DNA of 60,145 nt from a virus (lineage: Duplodnaviria > Caudoviricetes), in the IMG/VR virus record IMGVR_UViG_3300023293_000013, positions 1 to 60,145 of that record; one strand, given 5' to 3'. Shown piece after piece: positions 13,745 through 59,735 of the stretch (its first letter is position 1; every line of letters starts with the position of its first letter). A program made the position numbers and the translations under genes. The notes under the pieces were generated by a model. The model saw nothing but the letters and a program-made list of their open reading frames with translations. It was not told where the DNA came from and did not search any database.

Positions 13745-14107
13745 GTGAAACCCGAGACTAAATTCTATGCAAAAGTTAAAAAAAATATTACATCTATATC
13801 CTGGATTAGGATTGAAAACCTTAGCGTTCCTGGTACTCCCGATCTATTGGGTTATAATAATTCTGGCGTCTTTTTCACTGTTGAACTGAAATATACAAAA
13901 ACAAACAAGGTTACCTTTTCCCCACACCAAATAGCGTTCCATGTGAAACATCCTGAGAACACTTTTATCCTAGTAGAGGATGCCTTAAGCCGGACTCCAA
14001 AACTTTATGGGGGCAAAGAGATCCGGAACCTGGTAGCCGGAGGCCTGAAGCTTGCACCAATGCTTCAGGGGTTTCCTCAAATAAAAATTTTTTTAGATAA
14101 TCTTTAG
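13745..14107 (+). CDS. VRR-NUC / Holliday-junction resolvase-like nuclease
   Basis: E...RIEN...PGTPD...VELK...SPHQIAF. Confidence 0.8.
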   Translation: MKPETKFYAKVKKNITSISWIRIENLSVPGTPDLLGYNNSGVFFTVELKYTKTNKVTFSPHQIAFHVKHPENTFILVEDALSRTPKLYGGKEIRNLVAGGLKLAPMLQGFPQIKIFLDNL

Positions 14108-14240
14108 AGCTTGTTGCTTGAAGCTTGAATCCGGAATCCGGGGGCTTCATGTCAATGTGACATATCATCCTGCGTCATTTTGTCGCAGCTTGAGGCTGCT
14201 TGTGGCTTGCAGCTTGAGGCTCCCCAGCTTGTGGCTTTTT
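14108..14240. repeat. GCTTG-core heptamer cluster with a TGCGTC-N5-GTCGCA box (module 1)
   Basis: gcttgtt gcttgaa gcttgaa tccggaatccgg ... ctgcgtcattttgtcgcag cttgagg ... Confidence 0.8.
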
Positions 14241-14273
14241 GTCCCTGCGACAATTTGTAGCACCAGCTGAATC

Positions 14274-14303
14274 AAAAAAAATCCGGGGCCAATGGCCCCG
14301 GAT
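14274..14303 (-). terminator. Intrinsic terminator of the leftward cassette
   Basis: ATCCGGGGCC-AAT-GGCCCCGGAT stem preceded by an A run (U tract on the minus strand). Confidence 0.8.
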
Positions 14304-14314
14304 CCAGGATAAAC

Positions 14315-14524
14315 TTATTTTGATAAACTTGATTTTTTCCAAGCCTCGAATGCTTTTTTCTCCAGCTCTTCTAATTTGTTTTCCCGGTCCAAAGCTTCGA
14401 ACACCGCTGATTGGATGCCTTTTATTTCGCTCCACGTGTCCACCATCATAAGCCTTCGCATAATGTGCAGCTTCAGGTGGTCGTTGTAATATTTGTCTAA
14501 ATCTTTTTTTCTGTCTGTTCGCAT
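14315..14524 (-). CDS. Early small hypothetical protein
   Basis: Has its own box promoter, AAAGGA RBS and terminator. Confidence 0.75.
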   Translation of the reverse strand: MRTDRKKDLDKYYNDHLKLHIMRRLMMVDTWSEIKGIQSAVFEALDRENKLEELEKKAFEAWKKSSLSK

Positions 14525-14562
14525 TTTTTATATCCTTTTTGTTTGTTTGTTTAACTGTATGC

Positions 14563-14607
14563 ATTATAGCAGAACCAGCAGGGATAAAAATATGACAGAT
14601 CGCCGCA
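14563..14607 (-). promoter_or_regulatory. Box-dependent promoter (RegA-like box plus TATAAT)
   Basis: Minus strand TGCGGCGATCTGTCAT-23 nt-TATAAT with extended TG. Confidence 0.75.
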
Positions 14608-14825
14608 GCTTGTCGCTTGAGGCTTGAACCCGGATTCCGGGCTCCTGCGTCAATGTGTCCGTCAACATGACAAATTGCCCTGCGACAATTTGCCGCAGCT
14701 TGCTGCTTCATTTTGACGCAGCCCTGCGGGCTGCGTAATCGGAACCTTTGTATCTTGGAGCTTGAGGCTTTTTGTTAAAGCTGGCTTGTGGCTTTTTTTT
14801 AAAGTTAGCTTGTGGCTTGTAGCCA
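14608..14825. repeat. GCTTG heptamers with three boxes (module 2)
   Basis: gcttgtc gcttgag gcttgaa cccggattccggg; boxes at 14645, 14680-14698 and 14703-14721. Confidence 0.75.
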
Positions 14826-14896
14826 TTGTCCCGGCACCAGGCTTCATGTATCTTTAGAGCCGCTGGGCTCAGTCTTATATCTTGATTATCTATCAT
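14708..14896 (-). CDS. Small hypothetical protein whose C-terminus runs into the repeats (KPQA)
   Basis: TAATG-coupled to 14896-15132. Confidence 0.5.
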   Translation of the reverse strand: MIDNQDIRLSPAALKIHEAWCRDNGYKPQANFKKKPQASFNKKPQAPRYKGSDYAARRAASK

Positions 14897-15132
14897 TATT
14901 TTACTTTCTTTTCTTTTACTTTAACAAATGCCATATATTTTAAATATCCATTTTGTTTATTTTTTTCTTCTTTATAGTTTTTAAATATATCCGTAATTAG
15001 ATCTAGTTTATTAGAAATATTACTTATTTCTTCAAATGTAATTGTTTGATTGTGAATTGATTTAATTTTTAACTTATGTACTAACTCATTAATTTTATAC
15101 AATTTGCTTTTTGTTTTTAAATCTAATTTCAT
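14896..15132 (-). CDS. Hypothetical protein
   Basis: ORF track; coupled. Confidence 0.6.
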   Translation of the reverse strand: MKLDLKTKSKLYKINELVHKLKIKSIHNQTITFEEISNISNKLDLITDIFKNYKEEKNKQNGYLKYMAFVKVKEKKVK

Positions 15133-15279: not shown

Positions 15280-15885
15280 TTAGTGCTTTCCATAACTTAC
15301 GTTTTTAATATCCTTGTTCCAACAGGCCCTGCAATCTAAGCATTGATTGCCCTGAGTCCCTGACGGACAAGTTGGTTTTCCATCTGTAACTACTGTTGAA
15401 GTATGCGGCCAGGCCTTAGGCGCAGCGCCGTCTACTTTAGCCCCGGACAATCTAATAATTAAATTGTCCGGGATCTCTTCAGGGTTAACAGCTAGGATAT
15501 ACTGACGCTCTTGCGTCGGTAACCAGTGTTTTGTGTTTGGTGTACGTTTACAAACATCAAAAATTTTTCTTAAATGATCCACGCTTTGAAGGTCCCCGGC
15601 ATCGTGCCACCTGAACCATTCTTGTTTTTGGATCTGTAGAGCCATAGCCTCGACCCATAAAGGGTGTTCAATTGCATCTAGTCTACGATACTGAGCTGCT
15701 TTAATAGCAGGGTATCTAATGTAATTATTTTTGAATGCATAGCATCCAAAGCATGGGGAGGTTGGTATCTTTCTAAGCTTTGCCCCCGTTTGACAAGCCC
15801 ATGCGGGCAAGCTGTAACTTTTACCAGGCATTTTTGAGGTCCTAGTTAATGAGTCTGTAATCTTTGCTGCTTCTTTTATTAACAT
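15280..15885 (-). CDS. Gp88-family (radical-SAM-like) protein
   Basis: SKMPG.S.SLPA..C..G...C..CYA, FRWHDAGD, HWLPT, CP...C..CRACW. Confidence 0.75.
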   Translation of the reverse strand: MLIKEAAKITDSLTRTSKMPGKSYSLPAWACQTGAKLRKIPTSPCFGCYAFKNNYIRYPAIKAAQYRRLDAIEHPLWVEAMALQIQKQEWFRWHDAGDLQSVDHLRKIFDVCKRTPNTKHWLPTQERQYILAVNPEEIPDNLIIRLSGAKVDGAAPKAWPHTSTVVTDGKPTCPSGTQGNQCLDCRACWNKDIKNVSYGKH

Positions 15886-15910
15886 AATTATATCCCTTTC
15901 TGTTTCCTAT

Positions 15911-15955
15911 ATAATACAGATCTTAAAATAAATTAAAACTGTACATATTGCCGCA
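15911..15955 (-). promoter_or_regulatory. Box-dependent promoter of the Gp88 operon
   Basis: Minus strand TGCGGCAATATGTACA-23 nt-TATTAT; AACAGAAAGGGA RBS downstream. Confidence 0.75.
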
Positions 15956-16066
15956 GGCGCCAAGCTTGCGGCTTGGCGCTTGAAGCTTGAGGCTAGCCTC
16001 AATAATGATTTAACGAATGTCCATTGCATTCAACCGCCTATTTTAACTGTCGCAGTTAACAGTTGA

Positions 16067-16340
16067 TCAGCCTCAACGCTCATGTCATGCCCTGGATTTA
16101 CAGCTTAGGTTTACAACTCCTTAACAGCATGACCATAGTAAACTACCGATCCCAAGCCACTTGCCGAAGACCCTTTCGGGGGTTAACCATAACAAGGTCA
16201 AGTGGCCAGGGATCAGCCCCGTAATTAAAGTCAGCTTCTCACTGACCATTGAACGGGGATCTCCGTACTTGCTTTTTCCGGTGCAAGTCCCGTTAAGATT
16301 TATAGTTTTATTCAGCGATAAATCTTCAAATGAGGCTGAA
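16067..16340 (-). ncRNA. Candidate ~275-nt multi-helix non-coding RNA
   Basis: Closing stem TCAGCCTCA/TGAGGCTGA enclosing several perfect stems; GAAA tetraloop on the minus strand; own promoter. Confidence 0.75.
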
Positions 16341-16345
16341 ATTAA

Positions 16346-16389
16346 ATATTAACATAATTGATTTTTAATTCCACGTGCAAACTGTCGCA
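16346..16389 (-). promoter_or_regulatory. Box-dependent promoter of the ncRNA
   Basis: Minus strand TGCGACAGTTTGCACG-22 nt-TAATAT with extended TG. Confidence 0.7.
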
Positions 16390-16391
16390 CC

Positions 16392-16460
16392 CTGAGGCTT
16401 GAAGCTTGAATCTCAAAATCATGTCAACATGACAAATTGTCCTGCGTCAATTTGTCGCAC
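16392..16460. repeat. GCTTG heptamers plus box (module 3) at the divergence point of early transcription
   Basis: gcttgaa gcttgaa tc...gtcaacatgacaaattgtc ctgcgtcaatttgtcgcac; near-copy of 14661-14698. Confidence 0.75.
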
Positions 16461-16475
16461 CCTGGAAAAATTCCA

Positions 16476-16520
16476 TGCGTCAATTTGGACAATGGTTTTT
16501 TTTTACAGATAAAATAAAAT
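16476..16520 (+). promoter_or_regulatory. Box-dependent promoter, cassette 1
   Basis: TGCGTCAATTTGGACA-23 nt-TAAAAT. Confidence 0.75.
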
Positions 16521-16556
16521 GCAAACTGTTTAACAATTAACAAAAAGGATAATACA

Positions 16557-17147
16557 ATGAAACCAATACGAAGCAATGAGTTAGAGTTTTTCAAAGAAAT
16601 GATTAGAGAAAAATTCTATGATAAAAAAGAAACGTTAAGAACTTATATAACAAGTGAAGCCCAAAAACTAAGCGATAAGAAACAACCTTTTATGGCTAAG
16701 CAATGTGGCGTTGAAACTGAACTCAAGAAACTAAAAGTAGTTGATGAGAAATATAGAGAGTTCAAACAAACAAAGCAACTTCAAGAACAAAAATTACTTG
16801 AAGCAGTTGAGGAAGTGGGTAGAACTTTAAGTGCCAAACTTCAACGAATGGCTAAAGCTAGAGATTGGGATAAAGATTTTTCCAACTTTAGTCCAAGAAT
16901 GGAAGGCGACAGCGTTGATTATTTTGTCAATAAATTAAATGATTGCTGTTATGATGAGGCCTACAAACAGGTCAAATCAAATCATACAGTATATAATCAA
17001 TTAAATAATATGAAGTCCGAATGTGAAATTATTTTGCATACAGGAAGCGACATCAATTCAGTTGTGACCACTTTAAAAGGTGCCATGAAAAAAGCTGATA
17101 TTGAATTACCTGTACCAAGTAATTTATTGCAGTTAGCTATAAAATAG
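16557..17147 (+). CDS. Early hypothetical protein (helical)
   Basis: AAAGGA RBS, own promoter. Confidence 0.8.
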   Translation: MKPIRSNELEFFKEMIREKFYDKKETLRTYITSEAQKLSDKKQPFMAKQCGVETELKKLKVVDEKYREFKQTKQLQEQKLLEAVEEVGRTLSAKLQRMAKARDWDKDFSNFSPRMEGDSVDYFVNKLNDCCYDEAYKQVKSNHTVYNQLNNMKSECEIILHTGSDINSVVTTLKGAMKKADIELPVPSNLLQLAIK

Positions 17148-17149
17148 AC

Positions 17150-17194
17150 TGCGTCAATTTGTGCAGTGGCTTTAATTAGCCACTGTGCTAATAT
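17150..17194 (+). promoter_or_regulatory. Box-dependent promoter with internal inverted repeat, cassette 2
   Basis: TGCGTCAATTTGTGCA GTGGCT...AGCCACTG TGC TAATAT. Confidence 0.8.
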
Positions 17195-17219
17195 AGATTT
17201 ATTAACAGAAAGAGGAAAA

Positions 17220-17399
17220 ATGGCACAACAAAACGAAGAGCACTTTGAAACAATAGACAGCAATAAAGCTAAAGCATACGAGGAACAGAAAGCAATGCGC
17301 CAGGAATTAATGGAATGGGTTAAAACTTGTGACAAATGGCATATGGGTGAATTATTTTCTGAAATGCGTAGAATGAAACGTAGTTGGGAAGTAGAGTAG
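17220..17399 (+). CDS. Early small protein (59 aa)
   Basis: Start corrected to the ATG after AGAAAGAGGA (MAQQNEEHF...). Confidence 0.75.
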   Translation: MAQQNEEHFETIDSNKAKAYEEQKAMRQELMEWVKTCDKWHMGELFSEMRRMKRSWEVE

Positions 17400-17401
17400 C
17401 C

Positions 17402-17446
17402 TGCGTCAATATTGACAGTGGCTTTAATTAGCCACTGTGCTATTAT
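17402..17446 (+). promoter_or_regulatory. Box-dependent promoter, cassette 3
   Basis: TGCGTCAATATTGACA-23 nt-TATTAT. Confidence 0.8.
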
Positions 17447-17473
17447 TCTTTTATTAACAGAAAGGATAAAACA

Positions 17474-17761
17474 ATGGAAAAAGAAAAAACAAGTGGTCTA
17501 CATAAAGACATTAAATATACAACTAGAGAAAATGGTGAGGTGTCTGGTTTTAGATTTACATCAGATGAGGGACGTGAAAAATTTAGACAAATGCAAATTT
17601 TAAATGTTCTTAAAATGGAAGTGATGAGCACAATGGGAATTAGATTTTACAGAGGATCTATTGTTAATGTTCTTAAATCATATTTTCCAGATATACCAAG
17701 AACTAAAAAAGGCGCATATAAATATTTAAAAGCGAGAGGTTATTATCCAGAAGATAAATAA
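17474..17761 (+). CDS. Early hypothetical protein
   Basis: AACAGAAAGGA RBS. Confidence 0.8.
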   Translation: MEKEKTSGLHKDIKYTTRENGEVSGFRFTSDEGREKFRQMQILNVLKMEVMSTMGIRFYRGSIVNVLKSYFPDIPRTKKGAYKYLKARGYYPEDK

Positions 17762-17763
17762 CC

Positions 17764-17808
17764 TGCGTCAAAGTGTGCAATGGCTATTTCTAGCCATTGC
17801 ATTAATAT
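17764..17808 (+). promoter_or_regulatory. Box-dependent promoter, cassette 4
   Basis: TGCGTCAAAGTGTGCA-23 nt-TAATAT. Confidence 0.8.
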
Positions 17809-17842
17809 GTTTGAATATTAATAATTAACAGAAAGATACAAA

Positions 17843-18082
17843 ATGAAAAAACAAACTGATCAAAAATGGATAAGCTACCATGCGACAAGATTAAATTTAA
17901 TTGATTCTTTAAATTCTCATATTAAATCTATGGAAGCAGTAAATGTTTATCATAATGAAACTAACCAATGCGATAGCCATAGTATGAGAAATGAGGACAT
18001 GGGTTTAGATATCATACAGAAATTAATTAAAAAAATAACTAAAGATGGAGATCAAGAACGAGAATACAAAGACGCAGTTTAA
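17843..18082 (+). CDS. Early hypothetical protein
   Basis: AACAGAAAGA RBS. Confidence 0.75.
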   Translation: MKKQTDQKWISYHATRLNLIDSLNSHIKSMEAVNVYHNETNQCDSHSMRNEDMGLDIIQKLIKKITKDGDQEREYKDAV

Positions 18083-18083
18083 C

Positions 18084-18128
18084 TGCGACAATATTGACAA
18101 TGGCGCTAATGCGCCATTGTGCTAATAT
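18084..18128 (+). promoter_or_regulatory. Box-dependent promoter, cassette 5
   Basis: TGCGACAATATTGACA-23 nt-TAATAT. Confidence 0.8.
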
Positions 18129-18152
18129 AAGATATTAACAGAAAGGAATACA

Positions 18153-18332
18153 ATGGGACAATTAACAGAACAATTAAAAAAAGACTTTATTAAAAATGGC
18201 TTTGAAAAAAAAGAAGCTACAAAAAAAGCGCATGAATATATGAGTAAATATAATTTATGTCGTTCATGTGGAGAATCTATACGAATAGATTTCCACAGTT
18301 GGAAACCAGGTTATTGTCAAGGTTGCTGTTAG
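18153..18332 (+). CDS. Early small zinc-finger protein (59 aa)
   Basis: Manual translation MGQLTEQ...CRSCG...YCQGCC; AACAGAAAGGA RBS. Confidence 0.75.
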   Translation: MGQLTEQLKKDFIKNGFEKKEATKKAHEYMSKYNLCRSCGESIRIDFHSWKPGYCQGCC

Positions 18333-18334
18333 CC

Positions 18335-18380
18335 TGCGACAATTATGACAATGGCGCCTAACGGCGCCATGTGTTATTAT
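18335..18380 (+). promoter_or_regulatory. Box-dependent promoter, cassette 6
   Basis: TGCGACAATTATGACA-24 nt-TATTAT. Confidence 0.8.
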
Positions 18381-58085: not shown

Positions 58086-59735
58086 ATGAAAGATTTTACA
58101 AGATATTTTACAGGTTTACAAAGAGACTTTGGTTTCTGTAACATTAATAAAGGTTACAAGGATCCAGAAACAGGAAAGATAAAATTTAACAATGGTGATT
58201 ATGGTTGGGCCGGAAAACCAATTTCAGATAAAGATTACGAAGAACATATAGAAGGTATAAAATCTATAGGTATTCAACCTTGTAACGATAATGGTTATGC
58301 AAGTTTTGGTGCAATAGATATTGATCCTAAAATATATAAAAACTTTGATGTAAAATTTTATTTAGATATTATTCAAGAAAAAGAATTACCTTTAATACCT
58401 ATTAAATCAAAAAGTAACGGATTACATTTATATGTATTTACAGAAGAACCTGTTAAAGCTTTAGAGATAAAAGAATTTTTAGAACAGGTATTATTTTTAT
58501 TTAATCTAACTATTAAAACAGAAATATTTCCTAAACAAACTAAACTAGGTTCTAATACTGAAGGTCAAAAGATGAATGGTAATTTTATTAACCTTCCATA
58601 CTTTAATAAAATAGAAAGAGTTGCATTAAATCCAGATGGTAGTGAGATGGATTTAGATACATTTTTAAAATGTATTGAGTTAAATAAAGTTAAGGTAGAA
58701 CATTTAAGAAATATAAAAAGTAAAATTATTGAGAACGAATTAAAAGGTGGTGCTGATGAATTTAATGATGGTCCACCATGTCTTGGAATATTAACTAAAA
58801 ATATAATGGTTGAAGGTAGAGATCGTTTTCTTTTTAATTATATGGTGTTTGCTAAGAAAAAATATGCAGACAACTGGAAAACAAAAGTATTAGAAGCTGC
58901 TAGAAACTATTTTAAATTTGATCAGAACTGGACAGATGATCATGTTAAACAAAAGATAAAGAGTTGGGACAAAGCAACAGCAGGACATACTTGTCATCAA
59001 GATCCAATCAATACAGTTTGTGTTAAATCAGAATGTATAAAAAGAAAATTTGGTATAGCTAGTGAAGCTAAAGCAAGTTGGCCTGTACTAGGTAACTTAC
59101 AAAAGATAGACTTTAAACCAGATCCAGAATACTATTTTACGGTTGAGAGAGAAGATGGTGAGACTATTCCAATCCATGCAAAAGATGTAAATAAAATAAA
59201 AGAACAAAAAGAAATGCGTGGTTTAATTATGGCTCAAGCGGATATTCCACCTCCACCTATCAAAGGTATGGAGTTTTTTGAAATTATAAAAGCGTTGTTC
59301 TCTAACATTGATACAGTGCAACCGGCTCCAGGGACCAGGCCTCATGAGATATTACATAAACATTTAAATAATTTTGTTAATGGTTCAAAGGCTACTAACT
59401 ACCATTCATTTAAAAGTGGAAACGTTTTTAAAGATGAGGTGTATGCATATTTTGTTTATGATGAGTTCTATATTTATTTAAAAGAAAGAGAATGGAGAAA
59501 AGATTCTTCAAGAACTTCTCATATGATTGAAAAATTATTTGATAAAGAAGAATTTGAAGGTCGACCTAAACCGGAGTTTAACAAAAAGAAAAGATTTCCA
59601 GGTAAAGATAAAAAAACAAATAAACCTTATCCAGGTGTAGGGGGATGTGCAATGATACCTTTATCTATTATTGAAAAAGAAGATGAAGATGTAGAAGACA
59701 TTGTACACATAGAAGATCAAGAGGATATTGTTTAA
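58086..59735 (+). CDS. AEP primase, second (divergent) copy
   Basis: Same length as 584-2233, with dozens of amino-acid differences. Confidence 0.75.
   Translation: MKDFTRYFTGLQRDFGFCNINKGYKDPETGKIKFNNGDYGWAGKPISDKDYEEHIEGIKSIGIQPCNDNGYASFGAIDIDPKIYKNFDVKFYLDIIQEKELPLIPIKSKSNGLHLYVFTEEPVKALEIKEFLEQVLFLFNLTIKTEIFPKQTKLGSNTEGQKMNGNFINLPYFNKIERVALNPDGSEMDLDTFLKCIELNKVKVEHLRNIKSKIIENELKGGADEFNDGPPCLGILTKNIMVEGRDRFLFNYMVFAKKKYADNWKTKVLEAARNYFKFDQNWTDDHVKQKIKSWDKATAGHTCHQDPINTVCVKSECIKRKFGIASEAKASWPVLGNLQKIDFKPDPEYYFTVEREDGETIPIHAKDVNKIKEQKEMRGLIMAQADIPPPPIKGMEFFEIIKALFSNIDTVQPAPGTRPHEILHKHLNNFVNGSKATNYHSFKSGNVFKDEVYAYFVYDEFYIYLKEREWRKDSSRTSHMIEKLFDKEEFEGRPKPEFNKKKRFPGKDKKTNKPYPGVGGCAMIPLSIIEKEDEDVEDIVHIEDQEDIV

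Follow-up and report, generated by a model that had tools for sequence, protein, structure and literature searches.

The window analysed here, i.e., the whole 60,145-base stretch of an IMG/VR record with an estimated completeness of 96%, is a relative of Pelagibacter phage HTVC023P—the only deposited phage with a DNA match to the flagged region (blastn, 86 nt). HTVC027P, a phage with infection RNA-seq, gave no blastn match to this region. Genes assigned by Pfam or PHROGs to an AEP primase, a UvrD helicase, a family-A DNA polymerase, the large terminase and the portal lie on the plus strand, and a short minus-strand block (12.6-16.3 kb) contains a small-terminase-like gene and a GP88-family gene. 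The flagged stretch is located between this GP88 gene and a divergent promoter region. The features of the locus are as follows:

15280..15955, minus strand: downstream unit, comprising a second promoter and the GP88 gene
15280-15885, minus strand: GP88-family gene (PF17338, E 8.4e-28)
15955-15911, minus strand: second box promoter (box 15955-15939, TG-TATTAT 15918-15911), read by analogy, with no detection by a tool
15957..16064, minus strand: tail, a variable spacer followed by GC-rich hairpins (16002-15987 and 15979-15957) with no U-tract, obtained by folding
16065..16151, minus strand: core, a pseudoknotted 3' module compared over 22 distinct sequences, with helix P1 (16146-51/16065-70, from comparison with relatives), helix P2 (16126-33/16084-91, 8/8 pairs with double changes) and a pseudoknot of six pairs (GUUUAC 16143-38 with GUAAAC 16114-09, one compensatory change)
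16148..16214, minus strand: module A, the 'clamp' hairpin (-35.9 kcal/mol, z -4.88)
16217..16258, minus strand: module B, a variable hairpin of high stability (CCCCGU.../...ACGGGG, enclosing GUCAG/CUGAC; -20.2 kcal/mol, z -4.52)
16267..16288, minus strand: module C, a hairpin (ACUUGC/GCAAGU) whose loop, ACCGGAAAAA, is conserved
16295..16340, minus strand: module D, a 5'-terminal H-type pseudoknot found by sequence comparison, with stems S1 (UUCAGC 16340-16335 with GCUGAA 16316-16311) and S2 (AAGAUUUAU 16326-16318 with AUAAAUCUU 16303-16295)
16346..16389, minus strand: putative promoter, with box TGCGACAGTTTGCACG 16389-16374, about 20 nt of spacer and the extended -10 TGT-TAATAT 16354-16346
16557-17147, plus strand: gene for a 196-aa protein, driven from the divergent promoter region

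The GP88 protein of the window gave no sequence match in NCBIfam, PADLOC or the PDB, and its sole further Pfam match, a weak one, is to DUF7227; the portions of the literature that were searched yielded no paper on PF17338. Proteins of the window type share six conserved cysteines—C31, C45, C48 (CxxCYA), C173, C185 and C188—and a FRWHDxGD motif, their relatives form 5752 protein clusters, every one of them unnamed, and GP88 is the gene constantly found downstream of the arrays of RNA modules described below. The 196-aa protein has neither a family match nor an Atlas match, and the neighbouring proteins showed no match to defence families except one weak hit (E 0.0083). A 78-aa ORF (14896-15132, minus strand) has a sub-threshold match to LAGLIDADG endonucleases (E 0.005; 18.1 bits vs. 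a cut-off of 23.1). Two 549-aa AEP-primase ORFs near the two record ends (584-2233 and 58086-59735) suggest a terminal overlap, with a circularly permuted or terminally redundant genome; GC skew, tried as an origin signal, tracks gene direction only. Additionally, in the close relatives L127, L132, L134, L135 and L148 (L numbers denote loci of relatives) the interval from the RNA to the divergent promoter holds two or three further minus-strand ORFs; these are missing from the window (16340-16556), and the locus is a hot spot of gene gain and loss.

An earlier, sequence-only reading had described the stretch as a minus-strand RNA of several helices that codes for no protein and begins at a promoter of its own, and our analysis supports this description. 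ORFs overlapping the flagged stretch are short and not conserved, and each of the six helices that had been listed lies where it had been placed. Folding the minus strand of 16065-16340 gave -101 kcal/mol vs. -76.2 ± 5.1 for shuffled sequences (z -4.83; none of 200 shuffles equalled it), and the plus strand of the same stretch gave a z of -5.51. The dissimilarity to tRNA and tmRNA, previously judged by eye, agrees with ARAGORN (0 genes). The Rfam scan proposed at that time has now been run: no family of Rfam 15—which covers tRNA, tmRNA, 6S, SRP, RNase P, riboswitches, ribozymes, GOLLD/ROOL, IMES and others—reaches its gathering threshold anywhere in the window. At E values up to 10, the region 15850-16560 produced five weak matches, the best at 22.6 bits vs. 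a threshold of 90, and no match was obtained in the loci of 20 relatives (125,525 bases). The parts consulted of the literature, including PMC12753301, PMC9599517 and bioRxiv 10.64898/2026.10.21.760802, do not describe such a pelagiphage RNA. Another of the proposed checks, covariation, was applied to relatives, and several helices (in the core and in modules C and D) do covary.

What failed was the notion of a single closed fold of about 275 nt, as the number and identity of modules differ among near-identical phages. The closing stem (16067-75/16331-39) is present in the sequence but not conserved among relatives: its 3' half is missing in L007, L127, L132, L134 and L148, all of which possess the core, it is degraded in L129, and it is present in L205, which is without the core. 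Wherever it could be tested, the pairing is lost or degraded. The stem would join the loop of the 5' pseudoknot to a junction of the core—two modules that occur independently—and RNAfold draws it only because pseudoknots are outside its reach. Our analysis shows that the minus-strand RNA from 16340 to about 16065, possibly on to about 15987, is a non-coding structured RNA, built as a chain of five independently folding modules: the D pseudoknot, the C hairpin, the B hairpin, the A clamp and the pseudoknotted core.

Relatives were collected by pattern scans as viral contigs, metagenome contigs and one genome-bin contig. Near-identical phages have their flanks in common and differ in their interiors, with modules gained, lost and swapped from one to another; their content ranges from zero to four clamp hairpins, with the core either present or replaced. 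The window, L007, L127, L132 and L134 have one clamp hairpin apiece, with a different interior in each, two to four are found in L138, L146 and L148, and L135 contains the 3' core alone. The 5' domain (D) occurs as two sequence types. Arrays entirely without the core are found in the relatives of the 196-aa protein (35 loci), in which other pseudoknotted domains occupy its place; a covariance model of the core, run on 30 loci of such relatives plus the window, matched the window only.

The core was aligned over 22 distinct sequences out of 41 loci, some of which are the same contig from two collections. In this alignment, 90.3% of 484 cells are paired vs. 27-37% in controls with slid partners, and the covariation score is 0.542 vs. 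0.225 for shuffles, none of 500 being as high. P2, the GTCATGC helix (16084-90/16127-33) of the earlier list, has double changes at 8/8 pairs over the 22 distinct sequences; P1 and the two pseudoknots of the RNA were absent from that list. In the core pseudoknot, G-C is replaced by A-U in two sequences and U-A by U.G in one. About 60 nearly invariant unpaired bases stand between the freely covarying stems; the 35-nt loop and both junctions are nearly invariant, and part of this invariance is ascertainment, because the search anchors lie in the loop and the 5' junction. P1 and the base of module A overlap by 4 nt, so that both cannot form fully. Unpaired cells among the inner 19 pairs number 9/418 on the minus strand vs. 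19/418 on the plus strand—a modest strand signal from the core by itself.

The core is found in 5' UTR, 3' UTR-like and array contexts. In other lineages it lies 28-37 nt ahead of the start codons of at least four different genes, and the genes that follow it at this distance include a GP88-family gene (in HTVC023P-like phages), ORFs of 82, 111 and 137 aa, and a homologue of the 196-aa protein gene. Upstream of the HTVC-type core, TTGACA-15/16-TATAAA(T) was read by eye, and the promoter scan did not report it.

Modules D and C, each present in 12 other loci, show the same type of support. Over eight distinct sequences, 98.7% of their cells are paired vs. 24-38% in slid controls. The helix AAGATTTAT (16295-303/16318-26), i.e., stem S2 of D, is double-changed at 3/9 pairs over eight distinct sequences, and the ACTTGC helix of module C (16267-72/16283-88) at 4/6 pairs over eight sequences, with the variants ACCUAC/GUAGGU, ACCAUC/GAUGGU and AUCUGC/GCAGAU and 100% of cells paired; both had been proposed from the single sequence. 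Stem S1 of D is invariant and thus offers no evidence for or against itself in this sequence type. In the second sequence type of D, read from the sequences by eye, the pseudoknot topology is the same and both stems are changed in a compensatory manner.

Module A combines a base, GAUCCC/GGGAUC, with an adjoining U.U mismatch and an interior consisting of GCCACUUG/CAAGUGGC and a GAAA-capped arm, in the general form GAUCCC-U-GG...CC-U-GGGAUC. The base pairing of GATCCC (16148-53/16209-14), already part of the sequence-only reading, proved to be the conserved base of a hairpin family, with GATCCT/AGGATC in L188, L190 and L191. The inner helix GCCACTTG and its GAAA cap are likewise present, in four loci, in which they are unchanged and hence provide no covariation by which to judge them. 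For module B, the very stable CCCCGT/GTCAG hairpin (16217-58) exists as described, as a window-only sequence (0/338 loci) without comparative support; relatives carry unrelated hairpins at its position. A scan for the clamp base retrieved at least 120 viral contigs with the family consensus GAUCCCUGGUC...GGACCUGGGAUC. Extended stems are present in 114 of the 118 new loci among the clamp matches listed; their interiors measure 50-125 nt and comprise 161 distinct sequences. At the seventh position, 172 of the 178 hairpins listed carry a homo-mismatch, which reads A.A or T.T on the locus strand. No apical motif shared among the listed clamp hairpins was found.

The relationship of the clamp hairpins to GP88, and their strand bias, are the most informative aspects of this survey. 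A GP88 homologue is present in 98 of the 118 loci fetched by the clamp pattern, and all 144 clamp hairpins in GP88 loci lie upstream of GP88, on its coding strand, at distances of 105-1516 nt (both counts among the matches listed). The divergent intergenic region is the commonest setting (93/172 hairpins among the matches listed). Moreover, when each distinct clamp hairpin among the matches listed is compared with its reverse complement, the version read in the direction of the downstream gene is the more stable in 147 of 167 cases, with a mean difference of -4.07 kcal/mol (Wilcoxon p 7.5e-24) and 368 vs. 190 G.U pairs. This stability bias towards the GP88 strand is our main argument that selection acts on the RNA strand, the minus strand of the window. 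The clamp pattern occurs in 1/401 sampled bacterial genomes (all of one class). A separate genome scan gave five matches, of which only L183, a 1.6-kb contig binned in a 3.8-Mb MAG, is true.

Several candidates from the wider scans were set aside. Four loci of a metagenome 18-mer scan (L124, L140, L142 and L145) are chance matches and were left out, and a loose pattern, TAGGTTTAC...TAGTAAAC, retrieved 118 viral loci that are nearly all chance, with L110 alone both new and true. L142 (from 4668) and L145 show a metagenome CRISPR-like array with a repeat of about 47 nt that ends in a 16-nt string equal to the plus strand of the core loop; the RNA loop of the core would be complementary to this repeat if the array is transcribed as shown, and the match is probably due to chance, because it was found via an 18-mer scan of a very large collection. 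Other observations concern the organisation of relatives. One of them, L195 (1305-2614), has two separate arrays. In L198 (5600-5950) and L146 the array is preceded by a GC hairpin and by the stop codon of a small ORF, placing clamp hairpins in 3' UTR-like positions too. In L188, L190, L191, L195, L201 and L205, promoters and arrays have copies of a GC-rich palindrome, GTGGGCGGGACCCACCC, to either side, in many cases with T-runs behind it; these palindromes resemble mobile promoter/terminator cassettes that could drive mosaic shuffling.

At the 5' end of the RNA, the predicted start falls around 16339-16342, and the extended -10 ends about 7 nt before module D. The promoter that had been claimed for the RNA is there as a box/extended -10 layout, and is absent from the output of a strict two-hexamer sigma-70 scan (-35 and -10 at a spacing of 16-18 nt); its -35 is weak, and there is a U at the base 7 nt past the -10. 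The same box/spacer/TGnTAnnAT layout is common to four plus-strand gene promoters (17150, 17402, 18084 and 18335), and shuffled sequences contained a mean of 0.06 such sites for a pattern that was written post hoc. Box GGGTGCGACA and TGnTAnnA are kept in five relatives, and in other relatives TTGACA-17-TATATA stops 5-8 nt short of the same D pseudoknot. According to the available parts of PMC12753301, the RNA polymerase is specific to HTVC022P, and the HTVC023P-type group is without an RNA polymerase of its own. Two further sequence elements mark the regulatory regions. A 17-bp palindrome, TGCGNCAANTTGNCGCA, is found in all of them (14147-14702, 16440-16492 and 17147-18357), is often doubled and lies about 20 nt upstream of extended -10 elements; it has the look of an operator bound by a dimeric regulator of the phage. 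Heptad repeats (plus strand GCTTGNN, RNA strand NCAAGC) occur in 3 to 9 copies, in the window at 14106-14831, 15968-15994 and 16387-16413 and in relatives L235, L276, L290 and L332; in relatives they abut the -35 TTGACA of downstream promoters, and they may be an activator site or a UP-like element.

At the 3' end, hairpin 16002-15987 is a constant boundary in relatives. Read by eye, U-tract hairpins follow the array in L146, L188, L190/L191, L195 and L257, with a true U8 terminator at the tail position in L146. Among the matches listed, 9/98 loci contain a terminator-like site in the interval from the last clamp hairpin to GP88, vs. 9 in the opposite-strand control. RNA-library contigs of three studies contain the core with 0-1 mismatches, together with flanking genes; such contigs carry no strand, ends or level. 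One of them (918 nt) extends beyond the predicted start, which suggests either DNA carry-over or an upstream start. Contig ends at 15996/7 fall inside a palindrome and are uninformative, and the summed contig depth at 16272-16338, higher than in neighbouring bins in two runs of one study, is not valid as a measure of expression.

Taken together, these results show an undescribed modular RNA family of HTVC023P-type pelagiphages, located in the divergent promoter region, and we regard as secure that a new, widespread, modular structured RNA stands at the head of the GP88-side transcription unit. As to what it does, our tentative preference, held at somewhat less than even chances, is that the modules act in cis and co-transcriptionally, as a promoter-proximal leader on their own transcript. 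In this scheme, host sigma-70 RNA polymerase would start at the extended -10, a few bases ahead of module D, and the RNA would form the 5' leader of a transcript that usually runs on into the downstream genes—a continuation suggested by most relatives being without a terminator after the array. Recognition, by proteins or by the polymerase itself, would take place at the core's invariant single-stranded loops and at the conserved base of the clamp with its U.U mismatch, and may decide what becomes of the transcript: whether hairpins further along are read through, the 5' end is protected, or the RNA is processed in a defined way into stable fragments. On this view the tops of the hairpins would be free to vary as tolerated filler, and other phage lineages might obtain the same effect from the core on its own, as a 5' UTR element 28-37 nt before a start codon. 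The variation in module content speaks against a leader: cis-regulatory elements seldom vary in this way, and accessory or counter-defence loci typically do. In addition, many relatives have a repeat-plus-promoter cassette, sometimes with a small ORF, between the array and GP88, so that the link to GP88 may be one of synteny only.

That same variability lends some appeal to a trans-acting function, which we consider possible but rather unlikely. The RNA would here be, in line with the suggestion of the sequence-only reading, a modular decoy or anti-defence RNA, abundant, stable and possibly cut at the clamp bases, whose modules sequester host or defence proteins and are shuffled in an arms race. 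Its hypervariable module sets, present or absent even among near-identical phages, the 161 distinct interiors among the clamp matches listed, the sporadic core (the window being the sole match among 30 relatives' loci plus the window), the strong promoter of its own and the U-tract hairpins after the array in some relatives all favour this account. Yet 89 of the 98 loci among the matches listed have no terminator-like site, no conserved apical loop motif marks a shared ligand, and the core serves as a 5' UTR element in other lineages; the neighbouring proteins, apart from the one weak hit at E 0.0083, match no defence family, antisense targets in the phage are at about chance level (17 complementary 11-mers), and the fixed position heading the GP88-side transcription unit fits a decoy less well. 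We give an equally doubtful rating to a promoter-proximal cassette array, in which a strictly conserved 11-bp U.U clamp would hold hypervariable payloads next to exchangeable pseudoknots, at least one of these, the core, would be a new ribozyme or aptamer, and the whole would supply diversifying decoys or effectors in the arms race between phage and SAR11.

A cluster of small catalytic or processing RNAs is improbable in our judgement. One or more modules, and the core above all, would then be new self-cleaving ribozymes or nuclease sites that cut a polycistronic transcript; invariant unpaired bases, covarying stems and a pseudoknot are the conservation pattern of a ribozyme or aptamer, the core's 5' UTR, 3' UTR-like and array contexts agree with this, and so do several compact pseudoknots in tandem. 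However, no Rfam ribozyme or riboswitch model matches, even at E up to 10, and the sampled phages are closely related, so that the invariance may be overstated. Even less probable is an element acting at the DNA level with no RNA function, i.e., mobile or recombinogenic palindromes (REP/REPIN- or MITE-like) or a replication-origin structure. Clamp halves that alternate in orientation, 10-11-nt inverted repeats flanking variable segments, a mosaic region with repeated promoter and palindrome cassettes, and heptad repeats close by speak for such an element, but the strong strand asymmetry in stability and G.U content, the covariation of the core pseudoknot, an interior that differs in every copy, the fixed orientation relative to GP88 (144/144 among the matches listed), the clamp pattern in just 1/401 sampled bacterial genomes and a GC skew that follows gene direction only all argue against it.

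Few biological entities in the sea are as numerous as SAR11 and its phages. The family described here would be one of structured RNAs that have no match in Rfam and no paper in the literature searched; its covariation is clear, and its architecture—a conserved clamp, a variable payload and exchangeable pseudoknots—is not known from elsewhere. It offers new folds for RNA biologists to solve and, for phage biologists, a way into regulation or host takeover where the host polymerase is relied on; the link with the very abundant, uncharacterised GP88 family is a first lead to that protein. The HTVC023P-type group accounts for about 7.6% of viromic reads, according to the sections available of PMC12753301.

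Several known systems share individual traits with this RNA. CRISPR arrays and solitary-repeat RNA anti-CRISPRs were considered and rejected, the conserved pieces being inverted halves of a hairpin base, not direct repeats of 24-48 nt with unique spacers between them. REP, BIME and REPIN elements are palindromic repeats, scattered over a host chromosome in many near-identical copies, and are similar in having inverted-repeat units of alternating orientation in intergenic clusters of variable number; they differ in that the clamp occurs in 1/401 sampled bacterial genomes, its interiors are all different and its stability is that of a strand-specific RNA. ToxI is an antitoxin RNA array of type III systems, of which phages carry pseudo-ToxI mimics, and it resembles our RNA in being a non-coding array carried by phages, whose units vary in number, fold as pseudoknots and stand upstream of a protein gene. 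ToxI consists of tandem direct repeats of one unit of about 34-45 nt; in contrast, there is no direct-repeat family inside 16065-16340 and the sequences of the modules show no relationship to one another; the protein encoded downstream is GP88 (PF17338 only), not a ToxN/AbiQ-type endoribonuclease, with no matching PADLOC model; and a terminator-like site lies between array and GP88 in just 9/98 loci among the matches listed.

Intergenic regions of phages and metagenomes may contain clusters of small self-cleaving ribozymes, e.g., hammerhead, twister, pistol and hatchet. Like these, the modules are compact, pseudoknotted, mutually unrelated and arranged in tandem in non-coding phage DNA, with conserved loops and covarying stems, whereas no Rfam ribozyme model matches the present RNA. 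The early transcript of T7 contains hairpins processed by RNase III, to which the clamp hairpins are similar as long, internally mismatched structures of a putative early transcript made by the host polymerase, with function presumably residing in the stem and not in the loop sequence; the difference is that up to four hairpins stand here in tandem, with no cistrons between them, and that the base, including U.U, is strictly conserved. For the core only, T4 gene 32 provides a parallel: its 5' leader likewise opens a phage mRNA with an H-type pseudoknot, a few tens of nt before an A-rich ribosome-binding region. The core differs by its invariant 35-nt loop and closing helix, and by preceding at least four unrelated genes.

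The comparison closest to our preferred reading is with HK022 putL/putR and EAR, leader RNAs of processive antitermination, the latter of which contains a pseudoknot. Judged by description, the present RNA differs from put and EAR in being much longer, modular and hypervariable, and most of its relatives are without canonical downstream terminators. Its position is that of a put- or EAR-type element, with the promoter about 7 nt before D and an orientation fixed relative to the downstream genes; like them, it is a promoter-proximal, sense-strand structured RNA upstream of hairpins and genes, and could act in cis on the polymerase.
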